Positions 1-64,000 of a stretch of DNA of 64,000 bases are shown in pieces (the stretch's first letter is position 1; every line of letters starts with the position of its first letter). This DNA comes from Takakia lepidozioides. Taxonomy: Eukaryota > Plantae > Bryophyta. Made by a program: the position numbers and the translations under genes. The notes below the pieces were generated by a model. That model was not told the origin of the DNA and ran no database searches. It saw only the letters and a program-made list of their open reading frames with translations. Where the stretch lies: contig CM060732.1 in assembly GCA_030704615.1 (NCBI GenBank), positions 58,900,001-58,964,000 of the forward strand. The letters run 5' to 3'.

Positions 1-33520
<33,520 letters not shown>

Positions 33521-37700: not shown

Positions 37701-39005
37701 GAGTGTCCCAACCACATTGGTCTTGTAAATCAGAGTTAAAGATGTCCCGAGCCAAAAAAGTTAGAAGAACTTAGATCTACAGTAACATATCCAGATTTGG
37801 GAAATAGCCACAGATGGTGTACCACTTTCATCTTCTTTGAAACCAATGGTGCATTTAACTAATGGACTCATTTCGGGCAATCTTGAATGTGAGAATAGTG
37901 TGCAAGATTACACACAGAATTGGTAGTGGCTTCCCCTTGGCTCTCGCTACTACAAAGCACAGAAAGACCATAGTACGATTTTCTTTTTTTTAACTGTTTA
38001 CAGCTGTAAAACTACATCCAGATGGGGTTTGACAACAACGTTAGGAAGTTTCACATCAATAAGAGGGTCCTTCCTGCATGCGTGCAGTCCATTCCTTGGA
38101 AGTTCATCCGCATCGACCAGTCTCACAAGTACATCTGCCTGTCTCGTTCTTTCAGAGTCACCTTAAAGACACGCCCCTCGAAGCAAAGCAGCAAACACAA
38201 GTGCAATAACTTTCATTGGCAAGCTTGAAAACCTGTTTTCGGAACGGACTACAGACACTGCCGGTGGAGCAGCATTTTGGTTCAGCACAGCCCTAAGTGT
38301 AGACTTGGGCTACGGAGCACATTCAATTCCTAATCTAACCCAACCTGCCGCAAAATGCAAACTTTTGAAAAAGGATATGATCGTCTTGACTGGATTGTGC
38401 TTGTAGTGGACAGGCGACGCCGGGCACGCCAGATGGTAGATCTGATCGACTTCCAAGAGCAGTGGTTCCACAACATCGTGGCGGATCAGCTCGAACCGAT
38501 GGTTCCCGAAGTGATGCATCACATTTTCCTTCCTCCCTGTAAAGAAGTTGTCCACCACAATGACATTGTCTCCCCTTGCCATCAGCTTGTCTACAAGATG
38601 GCTGCCGACAAACCCTGCGCCTCCGGTCACCACCACTCGCAACGGTTTCCTTTTCAAGCCAAGAGGGACTTTGGCCCCGGGGCTGATGAATGGCAGTTGT
38701 TGCTTCCCAATCAACAATCTTTCGTATGATTTCCGGTAGCTATCATCAATCTCATTCGAAGCCTTAGAAGGTATGATCTTAACCGACTCGGCTACGAACT
38801 GTGGCGCAGGAACGAACAAATGAGGCTGAAGAAGAAAGACGGCACTTGCAATTGCCATCCCTACCAGAATAAACATGAGCCGCTGTTCTCTTAGCAGATA
38901 CTCCAACGGCTTCGACAAGGCCCAGGGCTTTTCAGGTTTTGGCGAGTATGCGTCGGCTTGTTGAGCGCTCTCATGCCGCCTATGATTTAAACTCATGTTC
39001 ACCAT
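34752..39005 (-). CDS. UXS: UDP-glucuronate decarboxylase / UDP-xylose synthase, N-terminally membrane-anchored type
   Basis: Exons (minus): 39005-38379, 37724-37577, 37299-37220, 36842-36759, 36146-36072, 35314-35222, 34967-34752 (TAA). TM segment [17 protein letters not shown], Rossmann [26 protein letters not shown], catalytic [25 protein letters not shown]. Start at ATG 39005 (ATG 38996 is an alternative). Confidence 0.96.
37725..38378 (-). other. U12-type (minor spliceosome) AT-AC intron in UXS
   Basis: 5' site ATATCCTTT; branch-site-like TCTTTAAC 10 nt before the terminal AC. Removal restores PVKTI|KTNVVGT in frame. Confidence 0.92.
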
Positions 39006-41716: not shown

Positions 41717-42529
41717 AGAAGAAAAAACAGATGAGTATCATTGTTTACGAAACAGTCATTTCATCAAACTATTATATTGTACACCACAGCAGGATGCTAT
41801 ATTTTCGACCATCCATTTTCCTCTTTTTCCAGTTGAAGGTGACATGTTTCGCTACTACCAAAATAAATCATCGAGTCGATTCAAAAATCGATTTTTTGTA
41901 CTCCTTTCAAGTCATTGAACTATTTACTTTTATTGAGTTGAAGGATTTTGAGAAAATGGTTAGGTTGTATGCTTTCTACATCTCAAATAAAAAATAAAAA
42001 TGCATGTGGCCTAATAGATGACACGTGGCTGAAATATGGCAACTTCCAGTTGATCTCCAAACTGACTGCAGTAGACCAGGTAGCCCAGTAGTTGGGAATT
42101 TTGGCCTTGCCTGTGTATAACCTAGGTGATCTAGGGTTCAAAGTCTCCACCTTCAAATGGAGCGCAGTAGTCCCTAGGATGAAGAGATACGAAAAGTCGT
42201 CCTTTTCTTTTTCCAAAATGACCACAAAAATGCATGTGACAATATTATATGGTCTTACAAAGTGACACATAAACGAGTTCCGAAATGATCTCATATGCAT
42301 ATTAGCCAGTATCTATGAAGACCTCTACATAATGGCGTCGCGAAGTCATTGCACACTAATCAAGATACCCACTAAACATGACGTGTAAATTAATCATGAT
42401 TTTGTCATAAAAAATGCAGTGTGTATTTGTCCAAATTTCTAAAACAATTGTTAGCTTAATTTGTGGGCGGCCATGGGCTCCCAAGTGTTTCCCCTTGGTA
42501 TGATTTGCACCCTACAGACACGGATCCTT

Positions 42530-43195
42530 GTGTCTACTCCACTCGGCACCCACCCCTCCTAATTATAACTTTTTTGTTGACGATAGTTTGGGATGTTGCA
42601 TACACTCCGACAAGCTCCAAAGTATGATATCACACGTAGAACGAGAATTTCAAGTTTCTACATCTAGTGCTGATATCTATGCACTGGGTCTGCACATCAT
42701 TAGAGATCGTGCCCACAAGCTCTTATGGATTGATCAATCCCTCTACATCAAGAGAATTTTGAGACGATTAGGTTTTCACCATTGTTCTCCTATCACGTCC
42801 ACTCCAGCGGGACCCAACATCCGGCTTGATGACACCTCAGATATTCTTGAAGATCCGGACCCCTCTTTCCCTTGTGCAGAAGCAGTAGTTTGCAATCCGC
42901 TCAAATGGGTAGCAATCCGGACATATCTTATGCAGTTAATACAATGGTCAAGGTTTCCTTTAAGCCACGAAAGTCTCACTACCTTGCAGTCAAACACATT
43001 TTCAGATATCTCTCTAGCACTATTCATTTGGATTTATGCTACGATGGGAACATTGGCACAAATCTCATAGAGGCTTATGCAGACACTGACTACGCGGCAG
43101 AGTTACAGATCGTAAATCAAGAAGCGGTTGTATAATACTTTTGAACCAAGGTCCTGTCATATGGTGTAGTCGCAAACAAGCTTGTGCTACATCAT
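42530..43195 (+). pseudogene. Ty1/Copia RT-RNase H remnant
   Basis: FFVDD (YVDD-like), LGLHIIRDR, IDQSLYI, PDISYAV, AVKHIFRYL, AYADTDYA, WCSRKQ; frameshifted. Confidence 0.8.
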
Positions 43196-44685: not shown

Positions 44686-45430
44686 TACAGGTCTAGTGTT
44701 CGTGAGATAAACCAACTTGCCCACTTTCCTTCGATATTCGGTCACATTAGAGGGAGGTGTGCCCATGTCCAGCGTTAACTTTAAATTTTCAATCATAGGC
44801 ACAGAGTGAGGATTACAGTTTGAGAAACCAAATTCCTCAAGCATCTATCTGACATACCCCTCTGAGTGATCATGATGCCTTCATCGAGATGAAGGAACCT
44901 CGAAAGAACTTGGCTGCAACGTAAAGTTGAATCAAGCCAAGATCAATCATGTCATACTGAAGCTTGAGTTGGTCCTGTAGCCAAGTTATCTTCGTTGTAT
45001 GGCTGCCTGTTAGGAGTACGTAGATCGTCAACATAGAGGATTAATAACACTATCAGCCCATTTTCCTTGAGAATCTGAGGTTATAATCCGCATGAGACCT
45101 ATCAAGACCCTGTGACTTAAGGCATGCGTCTATCTTGGCAATATACCAGGCCCTGGGAGCTTGTTTTAAACCATAGAGAGCTTTCAGCAGCTTACATATC
45201 TTAGTTTCATTCCCAGGCTCTTGAAATCCCTCCGGTTGTTTCATGAAGACTTCCTCCTTGAGTTCCCCATTCAAGAACGTCGTCTTGACATTAAGAGGAA
45301 AAATTTCTCATCCTGGGTGTGCTGCCAAAGCAACAATGGACCGGATGGTTGCCCATTTCACTGCGGGAGCAAAGGTCTCATCATAATCGATGCCTTCTCG
45401 TTGCAAAAATCGTCGTGCCACGAGGTGAGC
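44686..45430 (-). pseudogene. Ty1/Copia RT remnant, interrupted at 45431 by the Gypsy-MTase element
   Basis: Minus translations [65 protein letters not shown]. Confidence 0.88.
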
Positions 45431-45747
45431 TGTCAAGTTATTTTACCACTAGTGTGAAGTTAGCTAGGAAATAACTAGCTTTTATATATTGACATTTGGG
45501 ATTGACCCAAGTGTCAATCCAGGGGCCAATACATGTTTGGGCACCTGACGTTGTTATCTTCATGGCAGATCGCGGTGGGCTCATCTTTCTCGAGTTGAGC
45601 CTCACTGCGTCTAGCTATGGCGCCGTAGTGTGGATTCCCCATGGCGTGGGGTGCAATTGGCTCGACTTAATATATGAGTGATGTTTCCATGTGCAAGTAT
45701 GTGAGTTTGAGAGAGCTTGTGTGCTTGTAATATTCTTTTCTTTATCA
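45431..45747 (+). repeat. 5' terminal repeat (A segment) of copy 1
   Basis: Begins TGTCA, ends TATCA, contains the GGCTCA/TGAGCC hairpin, and is followed by a self-complementary PBS (45748-45759). Same architecture as 52530-52950 but different primary sequence. Confidence 0.75.
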
Positions 45748-47014
45748 CTCGAGAAAGATTAGCTCGAGTCTGTGAGTGCCAGGTTCGAGTTAGTTGTAGC
45801 ACTTGTGTTTTCAGATCATGAGAAACAGTTCAGCCTAGAGTGCAGGGATCCGTGCATGAGCCTATCCAAAGCGGATAGAGTGCAAAGGCGAACAGGTTGC
45901 AGGTTTGCAATGGATAGAGAGGCGGTCAGTGTTGCATAGCTCAACGTTCTGGCAACTGAGTATGCGGTTCTAGTGTGAAGCGGAGGAGATGCTGGCCACA
46001 AGTGGGCGAACTGGTGGTCGTCTTCTTCAGCTGTAGGCCGAGTTAAGGAGCTGAAGAAATGTGAGCTGCGCATGGGAAGCTAGCATGTTGCAGGTTGGAG
46101 ATGATATGATCAGCTCCACGTATTTCGGTTAGAAACTAGTTGTTGCGGGTAGATGAGGAGCAACCGAATGGTGGAGCTGCGAGGGGATGCATCGCAACCC
46201 ATTGGGAGCTTCAGCTCCAAGCTCATGAAGAGGTATGAGTGAAGAGAGGGAGCTGGTCCCTCTTGTGTGCAAATCAGTGCACTTGTGAAGCATGTGCTGA
46301 GTTGGAGTTTCAATCTGAAACTCAGCAGTGTAAGGGCTCTTGGAGTGGCAAGAGTGGGGCAGGAAGGGCAGCAGCGAGGCGTCCTAGAGCCAGGGGATAT
46401 GCATGAGAAGTGCATGTGCACCAAGTTTGTAAATGTGTGTATTTTCAGATTCGTTTTTGCGAGCTTCATGAAGAAATGGAGCTTGTTGGGCAGCATATTG
46501 CTTGCTTGTTGAGTTTAGGGTGCCTCTAGTGGGTTGTGAGAGCCCAAGAGAGCATGGCAGCAGGCCTGGTGGCTTCGCAGAAGCCATAGCTCGGCGGCAG
46601 CAGGTGCAGGAGCAAACCCTAGTTCCAGAAGAGCTCGAGAACGCATGGGAACTCGTTGGGAGTTCCAGGGAACGCAAGGAATAGTGGCCGTGATGGGCCG
46701 TTGGGGCGGTATCACGAGATACCACGAGCCCAGGTCGTGACTGTTGACCGTGACCGTTGGAAGCCGTGGTGCGGACACAACGGGTGGGCACGGTGACCAG
46801 ATCGTGGGGATGGCGGGCCGTGAAGGCTCGTGGGAGTGGTACCACGGGGTATCACGGGGCAGCCCGTGGCCAACGAGCGCCTAGGGCGGGCCGTGAGGAG
46901 TCGTGGCGGTTGGAGCCACGGAAGGCCGTGAACAGGCGGAGTGAAAATAAAATAAAATAAATAAATAAATAAAAATCACTCGTTTCGTGGGACCTTGATG
47001 GGGAGGCTGGGCTG

Positions 47015-50000
47015 CACGATGTTGAGATCGAGGAGTGGAGGATGTACTGGTCACCCGACTATGTCTCCATCACTAGAGGCACTAGAGGCACAAGGGCAGC
47101 AGCCACACCGGCAGCTGCACCAGCAGGCGCAACAGCTACAACAGCAGCGTCCACGAGCAGTAGTGAGACTAGTGGTACAGCAACTACGACGTCCACCCAA
47201 GCTACTGCTGCACCAGCACTTGTGGCAGTGCCTGCCTTCAACCCTGTTGTGGAGTTCTTCGAAGAGTTGAAAAGGAACTACCAAGGGATGAGGACAGAGA
47301 AGTTGAGGAGCTTGCAAGAGTTCCAACGGAAGCCTACTGAGAGCTTGAGGGAGGCTTTCACTCGCATGAGGCGCTTGATAAATGTAACCCAAGAGGTTAT
47401 GGAGGCTCAGGCAGTCCAATTCTGGTACGGGATATTGGACAAGAAGCTGAGGAGAAGAGTGTGGGATGCAACTCTCCTACAAGCGGCCCAACCCACCTTA
47501 GCAAATGTGTTTTTGCTGGCAGAGCGGATAGAGCTCAACATGGTGGAGGAACGAGTGGTCATGGTGGGATTTGCTAAGGAGACACCACGGGGTAGTGGTG
47601 CTCCTAGCCAGCCACTACCTCAACGTGTTCAAGGCAATAAGGGGGCTCAGGTGAAGCCCAGGGAAGGACAGAGAGGACCTCAGATGCAGGGGTCTCTCCC
47701 TTCATTTGCTGGCCAACAACGGGCGGATGTGGTGTGCTGGACATATGGAGGACCCTATGTCAAGAAGGATTACCCAGAGGGAGGCAATGGTTTGGCACCG
47801 GCACAGCCTGCACAGTTGCAGTGTGGGCATTATGGCAAGTACGGGCATGGAGAGGCCCAGTGCTATGGTTTGCACCGTGAGTTGCGCCTAGGCCAGTTCC
47901 AAGGGAACAATGGTGGCCGGGGGCGAGGTGGAGCAGCCCAGAGAGGACGAGGTGGCAGGGCACGAGGTGCAGGCCAAAAGCAAGCTCAACATGGCCAAGG
48001 ACGCGGAGGTCAGGGTGGTGACCAAGGCATGGCCAACCGGCTTCAGCAGCTAGAGCAGAGGCTCGCTGCCATGGCCACAGATCAGGTGGTACCGACTCCA
48101 AGGCCGGATGGTCCACCTCCTGCTCCTGAGGGAGGAGACTTGGGAGGCATGGGATTCATGTGCAAGGCAACATTACCACTACCACTATGTGCGGGGCAGA
48201 ACTACCATTAGTGCAAGTGGAGTCAGTTGCGGCAGTGACTCGAGGAGCAGCATGAGTTCCTGAGCCACGGGGTACGGAGGTGGAGTTGGATCTACAGCAT
48301 GGGGAGGCAAGCCGTTATGCCAGGCTTCCTCAGTCATTCACATTGGTGGAGACAGTGTCGACATCGTCCATGACACCTAGTTCTTGCCTGACTGTTACCG
48401 AGGCGGAGGTTACTATGCCATTGGGGAGAGCTATACGGGCAGCACCACTATCTAGTATTGCAAAGGCTACGGCAGCTAGTGTACTGCTGGGAGCGGCCAC
48501 ATCTGTGTGCCAGGGTCCATTGTTCTCGGCTACCATGATTGCAACGCCAGGGGTGAGACCAGCTGAGGTGTTTAGGCTGGCAGCTACATTCTGTGAGAGT
48601 GGGGAGGTTACTTCATCTTCTGCGGAGATAGTGGGAGGTGTAGTGTCGGAGGGATCCTCGGATGTGAGGGTCAAGACTGCCACGGTGGCACCATGGCAAG
48701 CTACAGCTGCCAGGTTGATGGAGCTGTCAGCTAGGCCAGCCATTGAGTGCACCATGGTGACACCTGGAGTTGTGATGTTAGACAACCAGGATGGAATTTT
48801 CTATTTGAGTGGACCGGCAGCCAAGAGGTACCGGGCACTGCGAGTCTTGTTGGACTTGGGAGCTCAACCATTGATGTTGGGCAGAGCTGCTATTGCAGGT
48901 TTGGGCCTCACGGAGGCGGATATGGAGCCGTGCCCTTCCCAGATACAGACATCTCTGGGAGGATCAGAGCAGGTTCGGGGCATGACACAGCATGAGTTGG
49001 CTATCCGACTACAGCCGGATCATCCTACAGATGGCTTAGTGATGAAAACCAAGGTCATTGTGACAGACACGGTCTCGTACGATGTCCTTGTTGGTGGGGC
49101 AGTGTTGTACCCCATGGGCTTCACCCTGGATTTTTGGGAGGAGTCAGCTTCCTATAGGCCTGGATGGCAGTCACGGGAGGGCCGGCATGTGTAGCTCCTC
49201 GTGACGTTCATATGAGGAGTTGCGGTTGCCCAGCGAGGCAAGATGCCGACACTGGCAGCATTCACAGCTGCAGTGACTTGGCCTGGAGAGTTGTTGGATG
49301 GCAACACTCATTCAGATGATGTGTCACCTCTAGGAGAGCAGGATGACATGTATGGTATGGCGGAGTTGTCTGTCATGGTTGCTCACACTCCATTGTGGGG
49401 CTCGAGCAAGGATTTGCAGCGGGTTACTGATTGTCGTGTGCAACAAGCCTGGGTAGATGCTTTTGTACCATCAGGAGAGGAGGACAATGCGGGGATTGCA
49501 CCAGGACCACCTCAGTTGTCACCGTTGGACACCATACCGATTGTGTGGCAGTGTCCGGATGAAGGCATTTGCCTTCTGGACTTGTTTGGTGGGATCAGCA
49601 CCGGATTGGTTGTTGTGCTACAGGCAGGTGTACCGGTACGGCATTACCTGTATGTAGAGAGAGATGAGACTGCACGACACATCTCCTTATGCCATGTTGC
49701 TCAGTTGGGGCAGCAGTACCATGAGTTGTTGCCGGTGTCTGCAGTTCGTGGATATCAGCAGGCCTTGCCAGCAGACATCTCTTTGCTGGGGACGCAGGAT
49801 TTGGAGTGGGTTGGCTCCATTGATTTGGTAGTGGCAGGTTGGCCCTGCCAAGGGCATTCATTAGCCGGGCATGGCAATGGATTGCGAGACTCGAGGTTGG
49901 GTCTGTTTTGGGAGATGGTGTGGGTTTTACGTCACTTACAACTTCATCATGCTGTATCTCCAGCATACATCTTGGAGAATGAGCCACTGATGGGTGATTC

Positions 50001-52529
50001 TCGGGCCAAGGTGATGGCCAGTGTGCATTAAGTTCGGTCGTGGCTTGGGTCAGCAATGTTGCTGGATGCAGCTGCAGTGGGGTCACGGGCTCATCGTCCA
50101 CGGTTATGGTGGACTAACTTGATGTCACCCGCACTGCTCAAGCGTGCATTTGATGGGGTGCAGCGGCCAGCACACCTCACAGTGGATAGCATTTTGGACA
50201 CAAGGAGGCAGTCTCAGCGTGTGAGACACGATGACCGTCTGCCTTTGGCAGTGGTCAACAAGGTGGGTCAACCACGAGCAGCACTACCTACACTACTCAG
50301 CTTCCCAGGATCGCATGCTTTCCGGGATAGTGGACCTGGCCTCCTATGGGATGCTCAATTGCAGCAGTTAGTGGAGCCTAATGCCGACGAGCGAGAGCGG
50401 GCTATGGGCTTTTCCACTGGGACCACGGTGGTGCCTTCTCTTTCTGAGGTATCACGTCATCAGGTGTTGGGGCCAGCGATGGATCTCAATTGCTTGATCT
50501 GGATTATCAACTTGGCTATGGCTGAGCAACGTAGAGTGCGGAGTGCACTTCCCTTGACGGTCTCTCTGCCTACCGAGACGGTACAGGCAGTGAATGGGGG
50601 CGTGCCGGTGAGGACCACGGGGTGTAGACATCCATGGCACACGTAGGAGGTGCTCGAGGTTCAGATGGAGTTGGCAGGCAAGGCGGTTGTGATGGATGAG
50701 GTTGGGGATTCTTCTCGGATTGAGGAGGTCCTCAATGATGAGACGATGGGGCAGGATGAGGCCTTGTCATTGACTGAGCAGGCAGGGAGTACTGCTCATG
50801 AGGTTGCGGCATAGCAACCACGAGACGCGTCTCCTAACTCTAAGTCTGCTGGACTTAAGGTTGCAGTTATGGAGGACAATTGGGAGCCTGACATTGGACC
50901 CATTAGCACTGGAGGAGAGAGACGATGTATACGGCGGTTCCTGAGGGCTTACAGGAATTGCTTTGCCTTCAGTTTTAAGGATCTGGGAGCATTGAAGGAT
51001 CAGGAGATTCGGCCACGGACACGCCAATCTTTCGGAGATCCTATAGATACAGTGACATGGAGAGGTCTTTGATTCAGATGAGGACTCAAGATTTCTGCGA
51101 GGCTGGTTTGGTGGAGCTCTCTGGTGAAGAGTATACTTCAGCCACGATGCAAGCCAAGAAGGATGTCTATGGCAATTGGACGGAGAGACGTATGTGCGGT
51201 GACTACCAGCCTGTAAATCGTCAGACCAAGTCCGATAAGTATGCCATGCCCAAACCTGAGGAGATCTTTGATGCCATTGGGCATGCCAAGGTCTTTAGCA
51301 CTTTGGACTTGCGGTCCGGATATCACCAGTTGCCGATCAAGGAGGCGGACAAGCAGAAGACGATATTCTGGGGGATCAATGAGCACGGGTAGGATTGTCT
51401 TTTGCTCGGTGCTACATAGATGACATCATCATCTTTAGTGTTACGGTGGAGGAGCACGAGAGACACCTTCAGGTGGTGTTTGAGCGCTTGAGAGCGCACG
51501 GATTGAAATTACATCCGGGGAAGTGCAAGTTCTTCCACAACCAGATTGAGTATCTGGGCCACATGATATATCTTGGAGGATTGGGGGTGCAACAGATTAA
51601 GGTAGAGGCCATCGCATAGATTCCACGTCCCATGGATGTGAGCCGAGTTCGAGCTTTCATGGGGTTGGCAAACTACTATAGACGGTTTGTCAAGGGATTT
51701 AGTGCTATTGCAAAGGCTCTAACCAAGCTGACCAAGGTAGACTAGGAGTGGCAGTGGGAAGATGAGCAAGAGCGAGCTTTTCAGGAGCTCAAGGCGAGGT
51801 TGACCTCGGCGCCCATCTTGAGATGACTTATCAAGGGGTGTCTCTTTCAGCTGCATATAGATTGGAGCATGTTGGGGCTTGGAGCGGTGCTCACACATGT
51901 GGATGATGAGGGAAGAGAGTTTGTAGTGGCTTATGCTAGCCGCTTGAACAATTTTGCAGAGTCTAAGTATAGCTCATATGAGGGGGAGTGCTTAGCTGTA
52001 GTGTGGGCCATGGCACACTTCATGTGCTATCTATACGGCAATCTCTTCACCCTTGTCACGGATCACTAGCCACTCAAGTGGCTGATGGAGTCAGACAAGC
52101 TTACGGGGAAGCTTGCACGGTGGGCACTTATACTCCAAGAGTATGACTTTCAAGTTGTGCATCGACCGGGTTTGGTCAATAGGGATGCGGACGGATTAAG
52201 TCGCAATCCATGCACGAGCCAGCAGGATGACACTGGAGCTCGGTGGCATGGTGAGACGGACGAGGAGATGGTGTCGGGATGGCATGCATCTGCCTTTTTG
52301 TGTATCTTGGCATCGGGAGGTCAGGTTGGACCTACAACAGGGATCACTGTAGACGGAGTGTCTGAGGACCCTGAGGCTAATGATGAGTCAGGTGATGCCA
52401 GAGATATACATGAGGATTCGGTTGTGTTGGACTACCTCCGCATTGGAGACACAACAGCTAGTGTGACTGCCAAGGAGAGGGATCAGATCCTGCAACGAGC
52501 CAAGATATTCAAGTGGATGGGATACACCT
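47015..52529 (+). pseudogene. Copy 1 gag-PR-MTase-(TAG)-RT-RH polyprotein, decayed
   Basis: ORF fragments 47042-48211, 48280-49194, 49243-50031, 50056-50646, 50869-52529. LLDLGAQ (protease, mutated), LDLFGG/GWPCQG/ILENE/AHRPRLWWTNL (MTase), YIDD (RT). 29-nt duplication at ~48148, deletions at ~51010 and ~51400, many nonsense codons. Confidence 0.9.
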
Positions 52530-52950
52530 TGTCATGGTTTTAGTCATGGTTATCTAGAATTACCTACTTCTAGTTAACTAGGACATTTTAGATATTTATA
52601 TTTATATTTTGTGTGTTGGGACTTCATTTGGTCTCACATGCCAAGTGAGGTGTCGAGCCTCACTTGAGACATGGAGATAGGTTTTCCCCTTGTGAGTATT
52701 GAGGAGGCTCATCTTCTTGTAGTTGAGCCTCCATGAGCTTCTCTCACCTCCATAGCTCTAGGTATTGAGAGGGAGTGAGTTGAGGGCTTTGTAGGGTGGA
52801 TTCCTTTAGCAAAGGTGCCATTGGCTTGACTTAGTTTATGTGATAGAGTGGATTTCAGTTGGAAGGACTAGGGCTTGTTCTTCATGTGATTGCTTCATGC
52901 TTTGAGAGCTTTCATTGTCTTCTACTTCTCTCATTTCTCATCTTTTATCA
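52530..52950 (+). repeat. Terminal repeat A1 (421 bp)
   Basis: Matches 63043-63463 with about 7 substitutions (by eye); TGTCA...TATCA. Confidence 0.95.
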
Positions 52951-52962
52951 CTACAAGAAGAT
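52951..52962 (+). promoter_or_regulatory. Self-priming primer-binding site
   Basis: CTACAAGAAGAT is the exact reverse complement of ATCTTCTTGTAG at 52711-52722 in the LTR. No TGG-type tRNA PBS at this position. Confidence 0.8.
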
Positions 52963-54182
52963 CACCTTATGCTTGTGAGTGCGGAGTGTAAAGATTAGTT
53001 TTGCACTTGTATTTTAAAGAGGTTGAGAGCTAGGAGAATTTAGCTCTTGTATCACAAGGCTTGCAAGGGGTTGCAAGGAAAGGTGCTCGAGTATTGCATG
53101 CACCAAGGAGTTGGAGAGCTTGAGAAGAAAGCTCTTGAGTCACAAGATTTTGCAAGGATTGTAAGGAGGAAGTCTTGTGGAGAGTGACTAAAGGCTTGTT
53201 AGTGTTCATTTCACTATCAAGCTAGGGTTAAGCAAGTTCAAAGTGTGGATGTTGTGGAAGAGAAGCCAATGAGCTATATATGCTTGGGCTTGAAGACAAT
53301 AAGGGCAAGCACTTGGAGAGCACTAAGAAGCTCAAGAGGTTTTGAAAGGGAGCATGTGAAGAAATCTTCCAATCATGGTGGTGTTGAGCCAAGCTTAGGG
53401 TGCCATTGGAAGGGCTTGGAGAACATGTGGTGGGAAATCCTTGAAGGGAAATCATCATTCAATGTATGCATAGCTTCACCCTAACTATGTAATGTGACAA
53501 GAGGGGGAGGCAATACTTGGCTATTCATGCTCTTGGTAGTGCGAGCTTTGTGGTGGATAGTTGACCAAGCAAGTGGTGCATGTGTGGAGCATGCTCGCTT
53601 GAGTTTGTAAGTTCAAGTTTGAGAAGGGGAGCTCTTGAACTAGCAAGAGGTGAAGGCCTTTGAGATCCATTTGTGTGTGAAGTGGAGAGGTGTTGATTCA
53701 TGTTATGATGAAGGAGAGCAACACATAGGCCAAGAGGTCATGAAACATGCATTCAAATGACCACGGGGAGCACATGGATGATGGATTGGTGCAAGACCCC
53801 AAATGAGGCATATGGCGTGAGAGTGGGATCCAAGGCGGATTGCTTGGGAGCATTATTGTAAGTGACAAACATTGCTCCTACACATTGAGATAATTTGTGT
53901 TGATTTGGAGCAATTGTCAAGTGATGAGGAGACAAATGCATTATTGCTTGGCAATGGAGATATGGTAGTTTGCAATCAAATCCCAAGGACTAGAAGGGGG
54001 ATTGATTTGGTGGACAGTGACTTGCAAGTTGAGTTGGACCACTCTTGGTTGCACATTGGGGTGGAAGAGAGCAAGAAGATGCCTCTTATGACCACCTAGA
54101 GACCATATTTTTGCTTGAGTAGAAGCATAGAAGTCAAGGACTTGCATTCTAGCTCTTCATTACAAATCCTAGTAGAGTATGC

Positions 54183-54577
54183 TCAGACTATACCTCTGTT
54201 AGTATACCAAACAGGAGCTTGTCCCTTTGACTATACCTCTGTTGAGGTATCACCATATGTGAACCCTAATGTGAGACTATACCTCTGTTAGTATACCAAA
54301 CAGGAGCTTGTCCATTTTACTATACCTCTATTGAGGTATCACCATATGTGAACCCTAATCAGCTCAGACTATACCTCTGTTAGTATACCAAACAGGAGCT
54401 TGTCCCTTTTACTATATCTCTGTTGAGGTATCACCATATGTGGACCTTAATCAGCTCAGACTATACCTCTGTTAGTATACCAAACAGAACCCTCATTTTC
54501 AGACTATACCTCTGTAAAGGTATCATCAACATAAGGGACCCTAGCAACCTCAGACTATACCTCTGTTAAGGTATCAA
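54183..54577 (+). repeat. Tandem array of 9 hairpin-forming ~22-nt cores (~45-nt spacing, ~90-nt dimer period) in the 5' leader of copy 2
   Basis: ACTATACCTCTGTT(AG/GAGG)TAT near 54186, 54229, 54275, 54319, 54367, 54411, 54459, 54502, 54553. Confidence 0.9.
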
Positions 54578-54603
54578 CAGTGAAAGGACTTAGTGAAATT
54601 TAA

Positions 54604-54727
54604 GGGCCTTTGGAGGATTGTTTGGAAGATATTTGAGGGCCCTTGGAGGAGTATTTGGAGGATCTTTGGGGTCCTTGGAGGAGTGTTTGGAGGATCTTTG
54701 GGGTCCTTCGAGGACCCTTCGAGGAGC
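54604..54727 (+). repeat. Short ~33-nt tandem repeat in the leader
   Basis: CCTTGGAGGAGT.TTTGGAGGATCTTTGGGGT repeated 2-3 times. Confidence 0.75.
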
Positions 54728-55307
54728 TTTGGTGGACAATGTTGAAGAGCTCTTGAAGGATTGATTGAGGGATATTGAAGGATACTTGCCACGGCCATAC
54801 AAGCGAGTGGATAGAGACAGGAGGGAGAGTGGTGGGATGAGAGCATTCTGGGGTTAGGAATTGCTTTAGTTTCTCTTCTCCATAGTCTTTCACCCTCTCT
54901 GTAGGCCAAAACCTTTCCGTAGGTGGAGGCAAGAGTCAGTCCGGGTTTGGGCTGGGGTGTCCTTGCAGGAGCGACACTGTGGAGTGTTTTTGGTGTGGGG
55001 GAGTTGCTGTCTTGATTTTCTTGTGTTTGGATCCCCTCCACACCTGCATGCTTGACTGTGTGCCATGTTAGCTTTATGTGAGCACTTGTTTTCATAGGAG
55101 GTTGGTCCGGATTTGATCACCGGCCAATCCTAGAGTATGCTGTCGGTGGTGAGGCTGGAGTGATGACCAGCAAGACCACCAGTGTTTCTTCTATGGTGAG
55201 GCTGGGTTGATGACCAGCAGACCATAGGAGTGCTTGCGGTGGATGCAGGTGCAAGTACAGGTCTAAGTTAGAAACCTATTATTCCTGCATGAACCAGTAG
55301 CCGCAAC

Positions 55308-58300
55308 ATGTTCTTTACCCGGTTACCTTGTAGAAAGTGGGGATTAGAGACAAGTTGACAACCGGTTGGGTTGTGAGTTTTCATCACGGAGGTGCCACCA
55401 ACTGCTGAGGGGAGTGCCGGTACAAGCACCATCGATACTAGTGGGTACACAAGACAAGGTGTGCGGTTTAGGCCACTTTCACCTTCAGTGTCTTCTGATG
55501 AAGGTTCAGACTCGGAGTCAGGAGGATTCTCGCCGAGGGTGCAAGTCATTTCCGTGCCATTGTTGTGGGACACGATGGAGGAGATGTATGGAGCTACCAA
55601 GGGGCCACGTAGGTACTCTGGAGCTGTGGGCACCATCGAGCTTGATGACTTTATACAAGAGTTTGACAGTTGGTGTGATTTGCAGCAAATGTGCAATCCA
55701 CAACTGTTTACGCCCTTTATGGCGTGGAAGGGGCTATTCCAGCACCTTGAGGGGCCACCCATGGATGATTACCATGAATTTAGGCAGGGACATGCGGTGG
55801 AGATTGAGGAGTGGCGAAAGTATTGGTCACCTAACTATGTCTCAATCACTAGAGGCACAAGGGCAGCGGTAACACCAGCAGCTACACAAACATCTCCAAC
55901 TACAAGCACTAGTAGTGGAACAAGTAGTGCCGGCACTTCTGCAGGTGGTACCAGTTCAAAAGGTGCTACTACTCCTCCTGCCACAATTACAACACATGTG
56001 CCTAGATTCAACCCGGTGGTGGAGTTCTTCCAGGAGTTGAGGAGGAACTACCAAGGTGTACGGACAGAGAAGCTGCGAAGTTTGCAAGACTTCCAGCGCA
56101 AATCCAGTGAGAGCTTGCGAGAGGCCTACACTCGTATGAGGCGCTTGATAAGTGTGACCCAAGGGGTTACTGAAGCTTAGGCAGTCCAGTTCAAGTATGG
56201 AATTTTGGACAAGGAGCTCAAGAGAAGGGTGCAAGATGCAACCCTGTTACAAGCGGCTCAATCCACATTAGCGGATGTGTTTCTGCTGGCTGAGCAGATT
56301 GAGCTCAACATAGTGGAGGAGCGAGTTGTTACCATTGGATTTGGCAAGGACATGCCTGCACGAGGTGCAGCTGCCAGCCAACAGGTACAAGGGACTGCCC
56401 AACAGCGTGGTCAGGGGGGCAAGGTTGCCCAACCCAAGTTCCATGGAGCTTACAGGGGACCTCAGGTGCAGAGGCCCGTGGCAACTTTGGCAGGCCAACA
56501 GCAACCAGGGGTGATATATTGGACATGTGGAGGACCCCATGTCAAGAGAGATTGCCCAGAGAGTGGCAGAAGGCCGGCACAAGCACAGCCTGCACAGTTG
56601 CAGTGTGGGCATTGTGGCAAGTATGGGCATGGAGATGCCCAGTGTTATGACTTGCACCCTGAGTTGCGCCCAAGCCAGTTCCAAGGGAACAATGGTGGCC
56701 GGGGGCAAGGTGGACCAGCCCAGAGAGAACGAGGTGGTCGGGCACGAGGTGCAGGCCAAGGGCAAGCTCAACATGGCCAAGGACGCAGAGGTCAGGGTGT
56801 TGACCAAGACATGGCCAACCGGCTTCAGCAGCTAGAGCAGAGGCTCGCTGCCATGGCTACAGCTAAGGTGGTACCGGCTCCCAGGCGGGATGGTCCACCT
56901 CCTGCTCTTGAGGGAGGAGATATGGGAGGCAAGGGATTCATGTGCGGAGCAGCACTACCACTAGTGCAGGTGGAGTCTGCTGCAGCCGTGACTCGAGGAG
57001 CAGCACGAGTTCCTGAGCCACGAGTGCAGAGGTGGAATTGGATCCACAGCGTGGGGAGGCAAGCCGTCAGGCAAGGCTTCCTCAGTCATTCACATTGGCG
57101 GAGACAGTGTCGACGCCATCCATGGCACCTAGTTCTCGCCCGACTGTTACCGAGGCGGAGGTTACTATGCCATTGGGGAGAGCTACACGTGCAACATTGA
57201 CACCTGCTACCAAGGCTAGTGCAGCCGGTGTGTTATTGGGGGCAGCCACCTCTGTGTGTCAAGCCCCACTGTTCTCGGCAACCATGATTGCGACACCGGG
57301 GGTAAGACCAGCTGCAGTGTTCAGACTAGCAGCAACACTCTGCGAGAGTGGGGAGGTCACTTCATCTTTTGCGGAGTTACTGGAAGGTGTAGTGGCAGAG
57401 GGATCCTCGGATTTGAGGGTCAAGACTGCCACGGTTGCGCCATGGCAAGCTGCAGCTGCCAGGTTGACGGAGCTGCCAGCTAGGCCAGCCTTTGAGCGCG
57501 CCATGGTGACACCTGGAGTTGTCTTGTTAGACAACCAGGGAGGCATTTTCACTTTGAGTGGACCGGCAGGCAAGAAGTACCGGCCACTGCGGGTCTTGTT
57601 GGACTCAGGAGCTCAGCCACTGATGTTGGGCAGAGCTGCTATTGCAGGTTTGGGCCTCATGGAGGCGGATATGGAGCCTTGTCCTTTCCAGATACAGACA
57701 TCTCTGGGAGGATCAGAGCAGGCTCGGGGCATGACACGGCGTGAGTTGGCCATTAGACTACAACCAGATCATCCTGTAGATGGCTCAGTGATGCGAGCCA
57801 AGGCCATTGTGACAGACGCGGTCTCTTACGATGTCCTTGTTGGTGGGGCAATGTTATATCCCATGGGCTTCACCCTGGACTTTTGGGAGGAGTCAGCATT
57901 CTACAGGCCTGGATGGCAGTCAGGGATGGTCGTCGTGCACAGCTCCCTGTGACATTCATTGGGGGTATTGCGGCTGCCCAGCGGGGCAAGATGCCAATAC
58001 TAGCCGCCTTTACAGCTGCAGTTAGTTGGCCTGGAGAGTTGCTGGAAGGCAATGCCCATGCAGAGGATGTGCCACCTCCAGCAGAGCAGGATGACATGCA
58101 TGGTACGGCGGAGTTGCCTGCCATGGTTGCTCACACTCCATTATGGGGTACGAGCAAGGATTTGCAGCAGGCTGCTGATGAACGGGTACAACAAGCCTGG
58201 ATAGAGGCCTTCGTACCGTCAGGAGAAGAGGAGAGTGCGGTGATTGCACCAGGACCACCTCAGTTGTCGCCATTGGACACCACACCTCTTGTGTGGCAGT

Positions 58301-59565
58301 GCCCGGATGAAGGCATATGTCTTCTGGACTTGTTTGGCGGGATCAGCACTGGATTGGCTGCAGTACTGTAGCCAGGTGTACGAGTTTGACGTTACCTGTA
58401 TGTGGAGAGGGATGAGACTGCACGACGTGTCTCACTGTGCCATGTTGCTCAGTTGGTACAGCAGTACCCTGATTTGTTGCCATTGTCTGCAGTTCGTGGA
58501 TACCAACAAGCCTTGCCAGCCGACATTTCGATGTTGGGGGCGCAGGATTTGGAGCGGGTTGGCTCCATTGATCTGGTAGTGGCAGGTTGGCCCTGCCAAG
58601 GGCATTCATCAGCCGGGCATGACAATGGATTGCGAGACTCGAGGACGGGTCTGTTTTGGGAGATGGTGCGGATTTTGCGCCACTTGCAGCTTCATCAAGC
58701 TGTATCTCCAGCATACATCTTGGAGAATGTGCCACTGATGGGTGATTCTCGGGCCAGGGTGATGGCCAGTGTGCATCAAGTCCGGTCGTGGCTTGGATCA
58801 GCAGTGTTGCTGGATGCAGTTGCAGTGGGGTCATGGGTTCGTCGTCCACGACTATGGTGGACTAACTTGATGCCACCCACACTGCTCAAGCGTGCATTTG
58901 ATGGGGTGCAGCGGCCAACACACCTCACAGTGGATAGCATTTTGGACACAGGGAGGCAGTCTCAACGTGTGAGACACGATGACCGTTCGCCTTTGGCAGT
59001 GGTCAACAGGGTGGGTCAACCATGAGCAGCATTACCTACACTGCTCAGCTTCCCAGGATCCCATGCTTTTCGGGATGGTGGACCTGGCCTCTTGTGGGAT
59101 AGTCAGTTGCAACAATTAGTGGAGCCCAATGCTGACGAGTGCGAGCGGGCGATGGGTTTTACCACAGGTACCACGGCGGTGCCATCTCTTTCTGAGGCAT
59201 CACGTCGTCAGGTGTTGGGGCAAGCAATGGATCTCAATTGCTTGACCTGGATTATCAGCTTGGCTATGGCTGAGCAGTGCAGAGTACGGAGTACACTTCC
59301 CTTCATGGTCTCTCTGCCTACCGAGACGGTACAGGCAGCGAGTGGGGGCGAGCAGGTGAGGACCACGAGGTGCAGGCCGCATCCATGGCACACGTGGGAG
59401 GTGCTCGAGGTTCAGAAGGAGTTGGCAGCCAAGGCGGCGGTGATGGATCAGGTTGGGGATTTTTCTCGGATTGAGGAGGTCCTCAAGAATGGGATGATCG
59501 GGCAGGATGAGACATTGTCACTGACAGAGGAGGTAGTGGTCACTGCTCAAGAGGTTGCAGCATAG
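55308..59565 (+). pseudogene. Copy 2 ORF1: Gag - 2 zinc knuckles - aspartic protease - C5 cytosine methyltransferase
   Basis: Likely start ATG 55308 (in frame with ORF 55392 through two TGA). Knuckles (Y/C)WTCGGPHVKRDC and CGHCGKYGHGDAQC; protease RVLLDSGAQ...YDVLVGG; MTase at ~58312-59270. Lesions: TAG 56178, 1-nt deletions ~57024 and ~57922, stops 58369, 58387, 59023, each open in copy 1. Confidence 0.9.
58312..59270 (+). other. DNMT3-like DNA (cytosine-5) methyltransferase domain within the retroelement polyprotein
   Basis: Motifs in canonical order: I LLDLFGGISTGL, II YLYVERD, III ADI, IV DLVVAGWPCQGHS, V DSRTGLFWE, VI YILENV, VIII RPRLWWTNL, IX ERAMGF, X RRQVLGQAM. Homolog in copy 1 at ~49564-50520. 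Confidence 0.93.
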
Positions 59566-62500
59566 CAACCACGGGACGCGTCTTCTACCTCTAAGCCTGC
59601 TGGACTCAAGGTTGCAGTCACGGAGGACAACTGGGAGCCTGATGTTGGATCTATAGTCACCGGAGGAGAGAGACGACGTATACGGCGGTTCTTGAGGGCT
59701 TACAGGAACTGCTTTGCCTTTAGTTTGAAGGACTTCGGAGCACTGAAGGGTCAAGAGATTCGCATTGAATTGGCTACTGACACGCCAATCTTTCAGAGAC
59801 CCTATAGATACAGTGACATGGAGAGGTCCTTGATTCAGATGAGAACTCAGGACCTTTGGGAGGCTGGTTTGGTGGAGCTATCTGGGGGAGAGTATGCTTC
59901 AGCCACAGTGATGCCAGCCAAGAAGGATGTCTTTGGCAATTGGACGGAGAGACGTATGTGCGGTGATTACCGGCCTGTAAATCGTCAGACCAAGTCCGAT
60001 AGGTATGCCATGCCAACACCAGAGGAGATCTTTGATGCCATTGGGCATGCCAAGGTCTTTAGCACGTTGGATTTACGATCCGGATATCACCAGTTGCCGA
60101 TCAAGGAGGCGGATAAGCAAAAGACGACATTCTGGGGGATCAATGAGCACGGGAAGGATTGCCTATACCAGTGGCGGTTCTTACCATTTGGGCTTAAGAA
60201 CGCTGGCAGAGTTTCAGAGAGTCATGGACAGGATTCTAGCAGGGGTGGAGTTTGCTCGGTGCTACATAGATGACATCATCATCTTTAGTGCTACGGTGGA
60301 AGAGCATGAGAGACACCTTCAGGGGGTATTTGAGCGCTTGAGGGCGCACGGATTGAAGTTACATCCGGGAAAGTGCAAGTTTTTCCACAACCAGATTGAG
60401 TATCTGGGTCACATGATATATCCTGGAGGATTGGGGGTACAGCAGACTAAGGTAGAGTCCATTGCACAGGTTCCACACCCCACGGATGTGAGCCGAGTTC
60501 GAGCTTTCATGGGGTTAGCAAACTATTATAGACGGTTTGTTAAGGGATTTAGTGCCATTGCAAAGGCTCTAACCAAGCTGACCAAGGTGGACCAGGAGTG
60601 GCAGTGGGAAGATGAGCAAGAACAAGCTTTTCAAGAGCTCAAGGCGAGGTTGACCTCGGCGCCCATCTTGAGACGACCTATCAGGGGGCGTCCTTTTCAG
60701 CTGCATACAGATTGGAGCATGCTGGGGCTTGGAGCAGTGCTCACACAGGTGGACGATGAGGGAAGAGAGTTCGTAGTGGCTTATGCTAGCCGCTCGAACA
60801 ACGTTGCAGAGTCTAAGTATAGCTCATATGAGGGAGAATGCTTAGCTGCAGTGTGGGCCGTGGCACACTTCAGGTGCTATCTATACGGCAATCTCTTCAC
60901 CCTTGTCACGGATCACCAACCACTCAAGTGGTTGATGGAGTCAGACAAGCTTACGGGGAAGCTTGCACGGTGGGCACTCATCCTTCAAGAGTATGACTTT
61001 CAGGTGGTGCATCGACCGGGTTTGGTCAATTGCAATGCAGATGGGTTGAGTCGCAATCCATGCATGAGCCAGCAGGATGACACTGGAGCTCGGTGGCATG
61101 GTGAGACGGACGAGGAGATGGTGCCCGGATGGCATGCATCTGCATTTCTGTGTATCTTGGCAGCGAAAGGCCAGGTTGGACCTGCAACAGGGATGACTGT
61201 AGATCAAGTGTCTGAGGACCCTGAGGCTAGCAATGAGCAAGGTGGCCCCAAAGATATACATGAGGATTCGGTTGTGTTGGACTACCTCCGCACTGGAGAC
61301 ACTGCAGCCACTGTGACTGCCAAGGAGAGGGATCGGATCCTACAACGAGCCAAGAGGTTCAAGTGGGAGGGGACACACCTGCTCCGAGTGTGGGAGGATG
61401 GTCGAGTGAGGATTGTGCCTCACCCAACACAGCGGGCACGGTTAGTGCGGCATGCCCATGAGGAGTTGGGGCATTTTAGGGTGCGACGCACTCATAGTCT
61501 ACTGCAGGGGCAGTATTGGTGGCGTGGTATGCACACAGAGGTGCAACAATTTGTGGCTAGGTGCATGGTGTGTGACAGGGTGCGTGCTTCATTCAACGCC
61601 CCTACTCCACAATTGCACCCTCTTCCGATCATGGGATTGGGCTACAGGTGGAGTTTTGACTTCGCAGGGCCGTTGCCACTGACCATGCGCCACAACAAGT
61701 ACGTGTTGGTGATGGTGGAGCACTTCTCCAAGTGGATTGAATTGGTTCCATTGCCTGATAAGGCTAGTGAGGGAGCTGCGTATGCATTCTTGGATTGTGT
61801 GCTTAGCCGATTCGGTGCTCCAGCTGAGGTACTCACGGACCAAGGGAGAGAGTTCTTGGGGGAGTTTCAGGCTTTGTGTGACAAGGCCTTGATAGACCAC
61901 CGCACCACTTCTCGGGATCATCCTGAGGCCGATGGCTTGGCAAAGAGAGTTGTTCAGACAGTAAAGAGGGGTTTGCGCAAGTATGGCTTGCAGAAGGGAC
62001 ACCTAGGAGATTGGGACCTTCAGTTACCCTGGTTAGCCATGGGCTACAGGTTCAGCAAGCAAGCATCACTTGCCTCCTTCTCACCATACTTTCTTCTCTT
62101 TGGCCGAGAGCCGGATTTGCCTACATCCATTCGCAGAGAAGCTGCTACAGTTCTTAACCTTGACGATCCGGACGTGTGGACACGTGCATGTGAGCAGCGT
62201 GCAGAGTTGTTCAAGAAAGTCATGCCCATGGCTTTTGAGAACCTTGCCATTGCACAACATCGTGATACGTTGAGGTATGCTACCATACGTGGTGGGGGCT
62301 ATCGTCCTGGGGTTCGGAGATTCAACCCTGGTGACTATGTTTATCTGCAGCAGACTGCTTCTACGACCTTGGATGTGACTACAGGACGTACTATTTTGAG
62401 GGTTCAAGAGGTGTTGCCCTCAGGAGTCCTGATCTTGGAGGGTCGAGATGGCATGATTTGGAAGGACCATGTGCGTAATTGCGCGCCATGTCACCTTCCA

Positions 62501-62698
62501 AATGTTGATGGAAGGGTTGACCCAAACCTGGCAGTGGTACCTGCAAGTTTGAGGTGCATGTTGTGTGGGTCTGCTAGAGGGGCAGCCACCATGCTGGTGT
62601 GTGATCAATGCTCTAGAGGTTGGCATATGGGATGCTTGACTCCACCTCTTGAGATGGTTCCTGATAGGGATTGGTTATGTCCGCATTGCATTGGATAG
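59566..62698 (+). pseudogene. Copy 2 Pol: RT - RNase H - DDE integrase - C-terminal PHD finger
   Basis: RT RMCGDYRPVN, LDLRSGYHQ, LPFGLKNA, YIDDII. RH LHTDWS, ECLA, TDH, NADGLSR. IN H..H..CMVC, FDFAGP, TDQGREF, GLAKR (catalytic E changed to K). PHD CMLC..CDQC..WHMGC..WLCPHC. One 2-nt deletion at ~60205. The RT-RH-IN order is Ty3/Gypsy. Confidence 0.95.
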
Positions 62699-62944
62699 TG
62701 GGAGTGGATACAACCATGGAAGGCTAACAAGAAATGCAAGGCCAAGCTACTAGGAGACCAACACATGAGATCCTGACTCAAGTTCACAGATTGCAAGACG
62801 ACAACTAACGATGGGGTTGCTCTTGTACCCGGCCTCTTGGTCTATAGAGTTTGAGTACAATAGGGACAGTGATAGAGGACTTAGTACGGCTGTGGCTATT
62901 ACATCTTGTAGCTATCTGGAGTTAGAGGGACCTAACCACCAGCT

Positions 62945-62954
62945 AGGGGGGCGA
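62945..62954 (+). promoter_or_regulatory. Polypurine-tract-like sequence
   Basis: AGGGGGGCGA immediately before T-TGTGG (start of repeat B1). Confidence 0.65.
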
Positions 62955-62955
62955 T

Positions 62956-63549
62956 TGTGGTATAGCTTTCTAGGATTGTGTGCTTAGATTGTGTGGTGGA
63001 TAGCGATGTATGTTGTGGCACGATGCTTAGGTGCACGACAGCTGTCATGGTTTTAGTCATGGTTATCTAGAATTACCTACTTCTAGTTAACTAGGACATT
63101 TTAGATATTTATATTTATATTTTGTGTGTTGGGACTTCATTTGGTCTCACATGCCAAGTGAGGTGTCGAGCCTCACTTGAGACATGGAGATAGGTTTTCC
63201 CCTTGTGAGTGTTGAGGAGGCTCATCTTCTTGTAGTTGAGCCTCCATGAGCTTCTCTTACCTCCATAGCTCTAGGTATTGAGAGGGAGTGTGTTGAGGGC
63301 TTTGTAGGGTGGATTCCTTTAGCAAAGGTGCCCTTGGTTTGACTTAGTTTATGTGATAGAGTGGATTTCAGTTGGAAGGACTAGGGCTTGTTCTTCATGT
63401 GATTGCTTCATGCTTTGAGAGCTTTCATTGTCTTCTACTTTTCTCATTTCTCATCTCTTATCATTGTGGTATAGCTTTCTAGGATTGTGTGCTTAGATTG
63501 TGTGGTGGACAGCGATGTATGTTGTGGCACGATGCTTAGGTGCACGACA
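62956..63549 (+). repeat. Composite 3' terminus B1(62956-63040)-GC-A2(63043-63463)-T-B2(63465-63549)
   Basis: B1 and B2 are 85-bp direct repeats (1 mismatch) with TG...CA ends; A2 repeats A1. Confidence 0.93.
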
Positions 63550-64000
63550 ACCTGCTTCGAGTGTGAGAGGATGGTCGGGTGAGGATCGTGCCTCACCCAA
63601 CACAGCGTGCACGGTTAGTGCGACATGCCCATGATGAATTGGGGCATTTTGGAATGCGGCGCACTCATAGTCTACTGCAGGGGCAGTATTGGTGGCGTGG
63701 TATGCACACAGAGGTGCAACAGTTTGTGGCTAGGTGCATGGTGTGTGACAGGGTGCGTGCTTCATTCAACGCCCTGATGAATTACGACACCGCAATATGA
63801 ATGAATTGACCTAGGTATTGGATGAACAAAGACACTGTTATAGGGATGATAAGTGACATTGTTATTTTATGACAAGTTTTATACATGGAAATGACGTTTT
63901 TTCTACAAATTTGTATTTTTGTAATGGTTGTAAAGACATGAAGTACTCATTTATGTGCCGCTGCAGTCGCTATTGCGGCGCCGAAATTGCGTACGGCAGT

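Follow-up and report, generated by a model that had tools for sequence, protein, structure and literature searches.

A Ty3/Gypsy retrotransposon family of bryophytes with a DNMT3-like methyltransferase domain at the end of its Gag-protease frame

Introduction

What would a retrotransposon gain from a cytosine methyltransferase of its own, and at which step of its replication would the enzyme act? The question is raised by a stretch of 64,000 nucleotides (nt) of Takakia lepidozioides (contig CM060732.1 of assembly GCA_030704615.1, positions 58,900,001 to 58,964,000, forward strand; hereafter the window, numbered from its first letter), in which two copies of a Ty3/Gypsy element each encode a C5 DNA methyltransferase (MTase) domain between protease (PR) and reverse transcriptase (RT). 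According to one review, land plants such as tracheophytes lack methylase-bearing transposons (PMC6338049). In this family the DNMT3-like MTase ends the Gag-protease frame, and it is probable, in our view, that the enzyme is made at capsid level and packaged and that, once the protease has freed it, it methylates the element's newly made complementary DNA (cDNA). A preliminary description of the window had recognized the MTase; it had overlooked the nesting of the copies, which do not lie side by side, copy 2 being inside copy 1, as well as a conserved readthrough-type stop, a self-priming site and split repeats.

The methyltransferase domain

Pfam DNA_methylase matched both copies between the protease motif and RT (E = 1.9e-8 and 1.4e-13), and motifs I, IV, VI, VIII, IX and X occur in canonical, non-permuted order in both MTases, unlike in DRM. 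The two domains are:

49528..50553, + strand: DNMT3-like C5 methyltransferase domain of copy 1 (Pfam, motifs, fold model); one stop
58276..59301, + strand: DNMT3-like C5 methyltransferase domain of copy 2 (Pfam, motifs); three stops

Private substitutions are found within the MTase motifs of each copy. Among 42 aligned relatives, which reach down to 32% identity, the catalytic Cys is kept in all 41 that have a residue at that site, the E of ENV in 41 of 42, and the two Arg of the motif VIII R-x-R in 37 of 41 and 40 of 41. The predicted structure of the copy 1 domain, modelled with an X at its single stop, had a predicted local distance difference test (pLDDT) score of 92, and all 33 Foldseek hits among the matches listed were DNMT3A, B or C (best E = 6.9e-19). 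Against solved structures the sequence ranked DNMT3A/B first (E about 1e-7), followed by 4onj (5.7e-5), which we take to be a DRM, and HhaI (2e-3); human DNMT3A/B were the best matches by sequence and fold alike. Judged by motif order, sequence rank and predicted fold, the MTase is DNMT3-like. The canonical motif order is common to the element MTase, human DNMT3A/B and the host plant DNMT3 (PpDNMT3b; PMC6453930). Unlike host DNMT3, the element MTase is without PWWP, ADD or DUF3444 (the last gave no match in the Pfam scans), is intronless within a polyprotein and shows about 20% structural identity.

The ratio of nonsynonymous to synonymous substitution (dN/dS) between the copies was 0.25 for the MTase (95% bootstrap 0.15-0.36), a value derived from two copies only, both decayed, and inflated by that decay; it was 0.14 for RT and about 0.6 in the linkers beside RT and RNase H (RH). 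These ratios indicate purifying selection on the MTase.

Reading frames and decay

The domain order is Gag-knuckle-PR-MTase-TAG-RT-RH-IN-PHD, where IN is the integrase. The order Gag-PR-RT-RH-IN, a Ty3-type RT and a DDE integrase place the element in Ty3/Gypsy, and the best PDB match of its Pol was Ty3 Gag-Pol (E = 8.8e-66). Downstream of the copy 2 MTase, Pfam matched RT, RNase H, integrase and, in the place of a chromodomain, which is absent after the integrase, a PHD finger (E = 4e-10). The best PDB matches of this finger were those of KDM5, ATXR5, PHF21A and UHRF1, several of which read unmethylated H3K4. The coding parts, with open reading frames (ORFs) numbered in order, are:

46973..52529, + strand: copy 1 coding part with Gag (start missing), zinc knuckle, protease, MTase, RT and RNase H; decayed
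52963..55574, + strand: long leader of copy 2, with a tandem array of ~92 bp units at 54181-54568
55575..59562, + strand: copy 2 ORF1 with Gag, zinc knuckle, protease (LLDSGA) and MTase; private stops and two 1-nt frameshifts; the start is possibly further upstream
59566..62698, + strand: copy 2 ORF2 with RT (YIDD at 60263), RNase H, integrase (H2C2 and core) and PHD finger (62555-62689); in the ORF1 frame, with one private frameshift near 60205

The 92-bp array in the leader comprises about four units. Both copies are dead. Of 15 stops in aligned codons of the two copies, 14 are private, including those in the MTase (one in copy 1, three in copy 2); at each of these MTase stops the other copy is open. 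Neither copy shares its Gag-to-MTase frameshifts with the other. The preliminary description had held that every lesion of one copy is open in the other, which is borne out for the MTase stops and the Gag-MTase frameshifts; the TAG between MTase and RT is shared and is not a lesion. Its reconstruction of a single Gag-knuckle-PR-MTase frame agrees with the intact Marchantia proteins P0007 (1278 amino acids) and P0244 (1332 amino acids), in which these domains follow one another in one frame. Its further claims, of a complete MTase between protease and RT in both copies, of a Ty3/Gypsy element and of a DNMT3-like enzyme as opposed to a permuted DRM, are upheld by the Pfam matches and ordered motifs, by the domain order and RT type, and by the structure ranks and Foldseek, respectively, and the check on selection that it had proposed came out in its favour in the two copies compared.

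Synonymous divergence (dS) between the copies was 0.98 in Gag (47021-47880 vs 55797-56660) and 0.2-0.4 elsewhere, and their terminal A repeats, described below, are also far apart; the two observations suggest recombination between subfamilies.

A shared in-frame stop with readthrough context

The one stop common to both copies is a TAG between MTase and RT, in frame with RT:

50812..50820, + strand: copy 1 in-frame TAG followed by CAACCA (CAR-YYA context), end of ORF1
59563..59571, + strand: copy 2 in-frame TAG followed by CAACCA, end of ORF1, family-wide

In all four public sequencing runs compared over 59505-59625 (587, 454, 6 and 1 contigs, the runs X1 and X2 being one sample that is possibly the source of the window itself), no variant reached 5% at 59563-59571; all six CAR-YYA bases were invariant, synonymous third positions included, and the six positions of 59505-59625 that vary at 5% or more all lie outside it. 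In contrast, the private stop at 56178 was read otherwise in >99% of X1 depth. Full-length ORF1 relatives, known from proteins of 1278-1332 amino acids, end at the matching place. Of 89 proteins with at least 47% identity, two continue into RT; the count gives weak support, as cluster members, decayed copies and a limit on length in the search bias it and the pattern used missed P0006. Downstream of the stop, no stable structure was predicted (z = 0.85 and 0.91).

CAR-YYA is a plant-virus readthrough signal that suffices alone for readthrough in tobacco mosaic virus (TMV) (PMC2194720). Because the MTase lies before this shared TAG with its readthrough context, the enzyme would be expressed at the level of Gag. 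As in murine leukaemia virus (MuLV) gag-pol, SIRE1 and TMV, an in-frame UAG parts an abundant upstream product from the polymerase, and the six-base context after the stop is of the TMV type (PMC2194720); unlike those systems, the element has a protease and a DNA methyltransferase upstream of the stop and no predicted 3' structure.

Nesting, split repeats and the internal palindrome

Copy 2 (52530-63549) is nested within copy 1 (45431-52529 plus 63550-63774), whose integrase resumes in register at 63550. The repeats and junctions, including the target-site duplication (TSD) of copy 2, are:

45431..45747, + strand: A-type repeat at the left end of copy 1, TGTCA...TATCA; the flanking Copia RT remnant (minus strand), into which copy 1 was inserted, is readable up to 45430
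52526..52529, + strand: left TSD of copy 2, ACCT, 4 bp
52530..52950, + strand: copy 2 repeat A1, left terminus TGTCA; 7 differences to A2 over 421 nt
62943..62954, + strand: polypurine tract directly 5' of repeat B1
62955..63040, + strand: repeat B1, TTGTGG...CGACA; 1 difference to B2 over 86 nt
63037..63046, no strand: internal palindrome GACA-GC-TGTC at the B1/A2 join; its halves are the element's two termini; putative attachment site
63043..63463, + strand: repeat A2
63464..63549, + strand: repeat B2, right terminus ...CGACA, fused directly to the end of A2
63550..63774, + strand: right TSD (63550-63553) and resumed copy 1 integrase remnant, ending at 63774

Copy 2 thus reads A (421 nt), genes, polypurine tract, B (86 nt), GC, A, B. 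Instead of the classic pair of complete long terminal repeats (LTRs) at both ends, it has A at the left, B at the right and a full B-A unit inside; its termini are of the TG...CA type (TGTCA...CGACA) and are flanked by the short duplicated ACCT. The A repeats of the two copies gave a local alignment score of 145, and shuffled sequences at most 84 (n = 200).

Parts of the arrangement recur in distant relatives with 36% MTase identity. G-tract-B-A-B repeats are found in L005 (9022-9909), and an 11-nt self-priming pairing, counterpart of the one described below, in L004 (1256-1480). L006 carries the palindrome of the window, GACAGCTGTC, at 7511-7589; this identical 10-mer lies 60 nt 3' of a polypurine tract and was the sole match in 19 loci.

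Two Copia RT remnants precede the element, at 45053-45430 (- strand) and at 42504-43070 (+ strand, judged by eye). Copy 1 was inserted in the former, which with copy 2 makes a three-level nest.

Probable self-priming

The site that follows repeat A pairs perfectly over 12 nt with a segment inside A in both copies:

45583..45594, + strand: copy 1 self-primer segment, complementary to 45748-45759
45748..45759, + strand: copy 1 primer-binding site, directly after repeat A
52711..52722, + strand: copy 2 self-primer segment and putative RNA 5' end; lies in a hairpin loop (predicted hairpin, about 52703-52732)
52951..52962, + strand: copy 2 primer-binding site

A 12-nt pairing was reached in 0 of 20,000 shuffles for copy 1 and in 4 of 20,000 for copy 2, and the pairing covaries, with four compensated differences between the copies. 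When the 5' repeat region was folded from a start upstream of the primer, the primer pairing was not the minimum-energy structure, a local hairpin competing with it; since folding does not return the pairing, the case for self-priming is one of complementarity and covariation. There are no tRNA genes in the window.

The arms of the hairpin (52703-52732 and 45572-45608) have changed yet remain paired in both copies, with the self-primer segment in the loop. In this predicted fold, the 3' copy of the primer might be masked by the hairpin.

Tf1/Sushi elements and the plant Tcn1 chromoviruses are known self-primers; like the element here, they have no tRNA primer site and have a primer site complementary to part of their own repeat (PMC6317226). 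The element differs from them in its PHD finger in place of a chromodomain, its MTase and its split repeats.

Family and relatives

With the copy 2 MTase domain as query, 56 longer proteins were found at up to 71% identity, from Marchantia polymorpha, Calypogeia fissa, Sphagnum and Klebsormidium nitens (41%). A search with a profile yielded 171 proteins; the best 120 add M. paleacea and Riccia, and none of these 120 is named as a vascular plant, most of their rows being without an organism name. Marchantia has at least five intact ORF1s of 1278-1281 amino acids, its Mp4g09160 (BBN08134.1) having a naturally intact MTase domain, and no relative was found in the viral contig collection. Because 87,193 contigs of X1 align to copy 2, with the MTase covered like the rest, the family is large and diverse; all 30 bins of copy 2 were covered in three DNA runs, contig depth and counts not being equal to copy number. 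Among the 12 public runs listed as containing this DNA there was no RNA run, which bears neither way on expression. In a genome bin labelled Candidatus Obscuribacterales, one protein (P0276) has a 48%-identical MTase and likely stems from plant DNA in the bin.

In a tree of RT-RNase H (18 rows, all MTase-bearing) the element grouped with Marchantia and the K. nitens protein with support of 100/99. In the MTase tree (53 rows) it belongs to a clade of 14 rows that also holds liverwort and Sphagnum proteins (100/99); the K. nitens group was not sister to this bryophyte clade, the base of the tree being unresolved. A second architecture, RT-RH-MTase-IN-PHD, occurs in L001-L011 and in P0039, P0041 and P0051, as a single frame of 3329 amino acids in L004. 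The two architectures indicate that the MTase domain has changed position within the lineage.

Several of these loci have long extra ORFs 3' of pol (L006, 4790-7465; L008, 5577-6872; L001, 10949-12101; L005, 7272-8741), and Pfam gave no match in the three that were scanned (two of L006, one of L008).

Comparison with known elements

KnitGypsy-Dnmt3 of K. nitens has Gypsy domains, an unrearranged Dnmt3-like domain with Ka/Ks <0.2, and DIRS-like A-coding-B-A-B repeats (PMC5890265). The present element is like it in having an unrearranged Dnmt3-like domain under purifying selection in a Gypsy coding region and in its A-coding-B-A-B repeats. The K. nitens protein KFL_009030040 (P0044), whose MTase is 41% identical and which has the order PR-MTase-RT-RH-IN, presumably belongs to this KnitGypsy-Dnmt3 element; its identifier is absent from the available text of PMC5890265. 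Unlike KnitGypsy-Dnmt3 as portrayed there, the element has a land-plant host, is very abundant, and has its MTase at the end of ORF1, before the conserved UAG-CAR-YYA, and not in the Pol ORF with RT; self-priming, a PHD finger, an internal palindrome and an integration model are not described for KnitGypsy-Dnmt3 in that text. Given its bryophyte relatives and the grouping of its RT with the Klebsormidium element, the element is probably a land-plant branch of the published kind.

The relatives in Marchantia, Riccia, Calypogeia and Sphagnum and the 87,193 X1 contigs answer the concern of the preliminary description that the MTase might be confined to this locus. Its claim of novelty has to be lowered, a kind with the same repeat layout having been published for K. 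nitens (PMC5890265). The literature search found no published description of the element in land plants, of its readthrough site or of the circle model proposed below. Two later papers speak of 'streptophytes', and their trees or supplements may include bryophyte copies (PMC12344493; bioRxiv 10.64898/2026.05.21.726589); the available parts of PMC10952607, PMC2864245, PMC5009743, PMC9940879 and bioRxiv 10.1101/363937 hold no description of the element.

Elements of the DIRS order, including SymbioDIRS-Dnmt3, also have the A...B-A-B layout and a Dnmt3-like domain, and SymbioDIRS-Dnmt3 domains methylate CG de novo in yeast (PMC5890265). A DDE integrase, a polypurine tract and a 4-bp TSD set the present element apart from DIRS elements. 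Membership of the DIRS order was rejected, with no Pfam match to a tyrosine recombinase in the 16 frames scanned and an rve integrase present instead.

Proposed mechanism and alternatives

The RNA would very probably start inside A (A1) and prime itself in the manner of Tf1. Most ribosomes would then stop at the UAG and give bulk Gag-protease-MTase, with a few reading through to RT-RH-IN-PHD, a step in which we have good confidence. Reverse transcription would yield a linear DNA, each end of which reads B-GC-A. These ends would be joined at an A|B junction, as a two-LTR circle or a concatemer, and integrase would cut the internal CA-GC-TG palindrome, which would drop the GC, leave TG...CA ends with a short duplication and produce A...B-A-B; we lean slightly towards this sequence of events. 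Joining would be needed because linear DNA ending in B-GC-A yields an integrated A...B-A-B only after it, and the match of the termini to the palindrome GACA-GC-TGTC points to integration from an end-joined intermediate. Such integration is the boldest step and is based on one complete insertion and the related layouts. The packaged MTase would meet the new DNA first, and methylating that DNA would be its simplest use; there is a little more for than against its doing so before or during integration, with the new copy arriving marked like host heterochromatin. Whether the PHD finger would steer integration into repeat-rich chromatin is evenly balanced. The broadest statement, that an ancient green-lineage Gypsy class integrates from end-joined cDNA, as opposed to linear ends, with a retroviral-type integrase cutting at a CA-GC-TG palindrome within the LTR, and that in bryophytes a leaky UAG lets the element produce active DNMT3-like enzyme in capsid proportions, its copies being methylated before landing, is tentative and falls somewhat short of being probable.

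Several results weigh against packaging and cDNA methylation or against parts of the route, as do the small base of the selection estimate and the common origin of X1 and X2. The element shows no extra CpG loss (observed/expected 0.48-0.54 vs 0.42 in the host flank and 0.45 in a long interspersed nuclear element, LINE), and transition rates of 13.8% at CG, 10.1% at CHG and 5.6% at CHH fit ordinary host silencing. In yeast, no DNA methylation by the K. nitens domain was seen, a result that the authors call inconclusive (PMC5890265). Phage-type clusters tie in Atlas (score 0.96), phage enzymes being 26-33% identical to the MTase. The repeat layout is based on a single complete insertion, copy 2; the junction is absent from five of the seven loci with DNA after pol, several of them incomplete, and the spacer in L005 is 1 nt long. 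The two-LTR-circle precursor model was rejected for retroviruses in favour of linear DNA (PMC11054761), and Candida Tca2 has a conserved gag-pol stop without readthrough in yeast (PMC2194720).

What the MTase does could differ from what is proposed here. It might act in trans on chromosomes, damping its own family or competing copies and not marking cDNA in the particle. Expression at Gag level would presumably exceed the enzyme need of one cDNA, the family is very abundant, as the X1 contigs indicate, and self-limitation is raised as an option in PMC5890265; fusion with Gag and protease nevertheless favours packaging, as in retroelements generally, and in L001-L011 the MTase lies between RNase H and integrase, beside cDNA-handling enzymes, which leaves action in trans unlikely though far from negligible. 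The inactivity of the K. nitens domain in yeast, the missing CpG-depletion signature and the travelling of the domain with an unusual repeat layout would also suit a non-methylating job, such as base binding or flipping at the internal attachment site or nucleic-acid chaperoning. Binding alone, however, would not need the catalytic Cys, the Glu and both Arg, which are nearly invariant down to 32% identity, and we consider such a job improbable. A captured fragment of a host gene, carried along neutrally at this locus, is barely credible as an account of the MTase and already largely refuted: both copies here are dead, but the domain is in the same position in liverwort, moss and algal elements, its dN/dS is low, intact ORF1s exist and DUF3444 is missing from the Pfam scans.

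The expression and integration steps have rivals of their own. Were the shared TAG a true stop, RT-RH-IN would come from a spliced or separately initiated RNA, for which Tca2 is a precedent; in some gene models of Marchantia and Sphagnum the region is skipped, so that MTase and RT are joined, and the lack of a stable 3' structure would agree with it. The skipped pieces vary among gene models, though, as expected from predictors bridging a stop, ORF2 continues in the ORF1 frame and all six CAR-YYA bases are invariant, and we give this explanation a small but real probability. The A...B-A-B form of copy 2 would be a locus accident if a two-LTR element had been rearranged or misassembled and the family integrated from linear ends, as retroviral integrases do (PMC11054761), and there is only the one complete copy to judge by. 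This is quite unlikely in the light of the clean 4-bp TSD and the resumption of copy 1 in register; copy 1 likewise starts with A, the polypurine tract precedes B and not A, and the layout matches both the K. nitens report (PMC5890265) and L005.

If end joining and cDNA methylation are true, the family would offer a present-day example of the circle-precursor route that was rejected for retroviruses, and would be a land-plant transposon that writes its own epigenetic mark. The complete insertion predicts an RNA start, a leaky stop, an extrachromosomal junction and an integrase cut site, and the intact-ORF1 relatives in Marchantia polymorpha, a model with methylation mutants (transposons are de-repressed in its met mutants), make the role of retrotransposon DNMTs directly testable. 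LTR finders that need two matching terminal repeats would likely miss the family, and the Marchantia annotation treats ORF1 copies as host genes, so that DNMT counts can come out too high.

Surrounding sequence

Upstream of the nest, exons of the host DNA polymerase epsilon catalytic subunit, separated by long introns, extend over about 9000-33200 (+ strand; Pfam POL2_thumb at 14462). An intron of this gene holds a decayed LINE (endonuclease, RT) at 17463-21326 (+ strand). An inverted pair of 250 nt (16420-16669/17114-17363) is 92% complementary, and a short dispersed repeat family occurs in both orientations at 3000-30700. A seven-exon host gene for UDP-glucuronic acid decarboxylase (UXS) lies at 34755-39005 (- strand) and encodes a product closest, at 83% identity, to a Sphagnum protein; a bryophyte host is likely from a UXS tree of 45 rows (44 of the best 120 matches, no labelled hornwort), in which it groups with Sphagnum and Marchantia rows (82/94).

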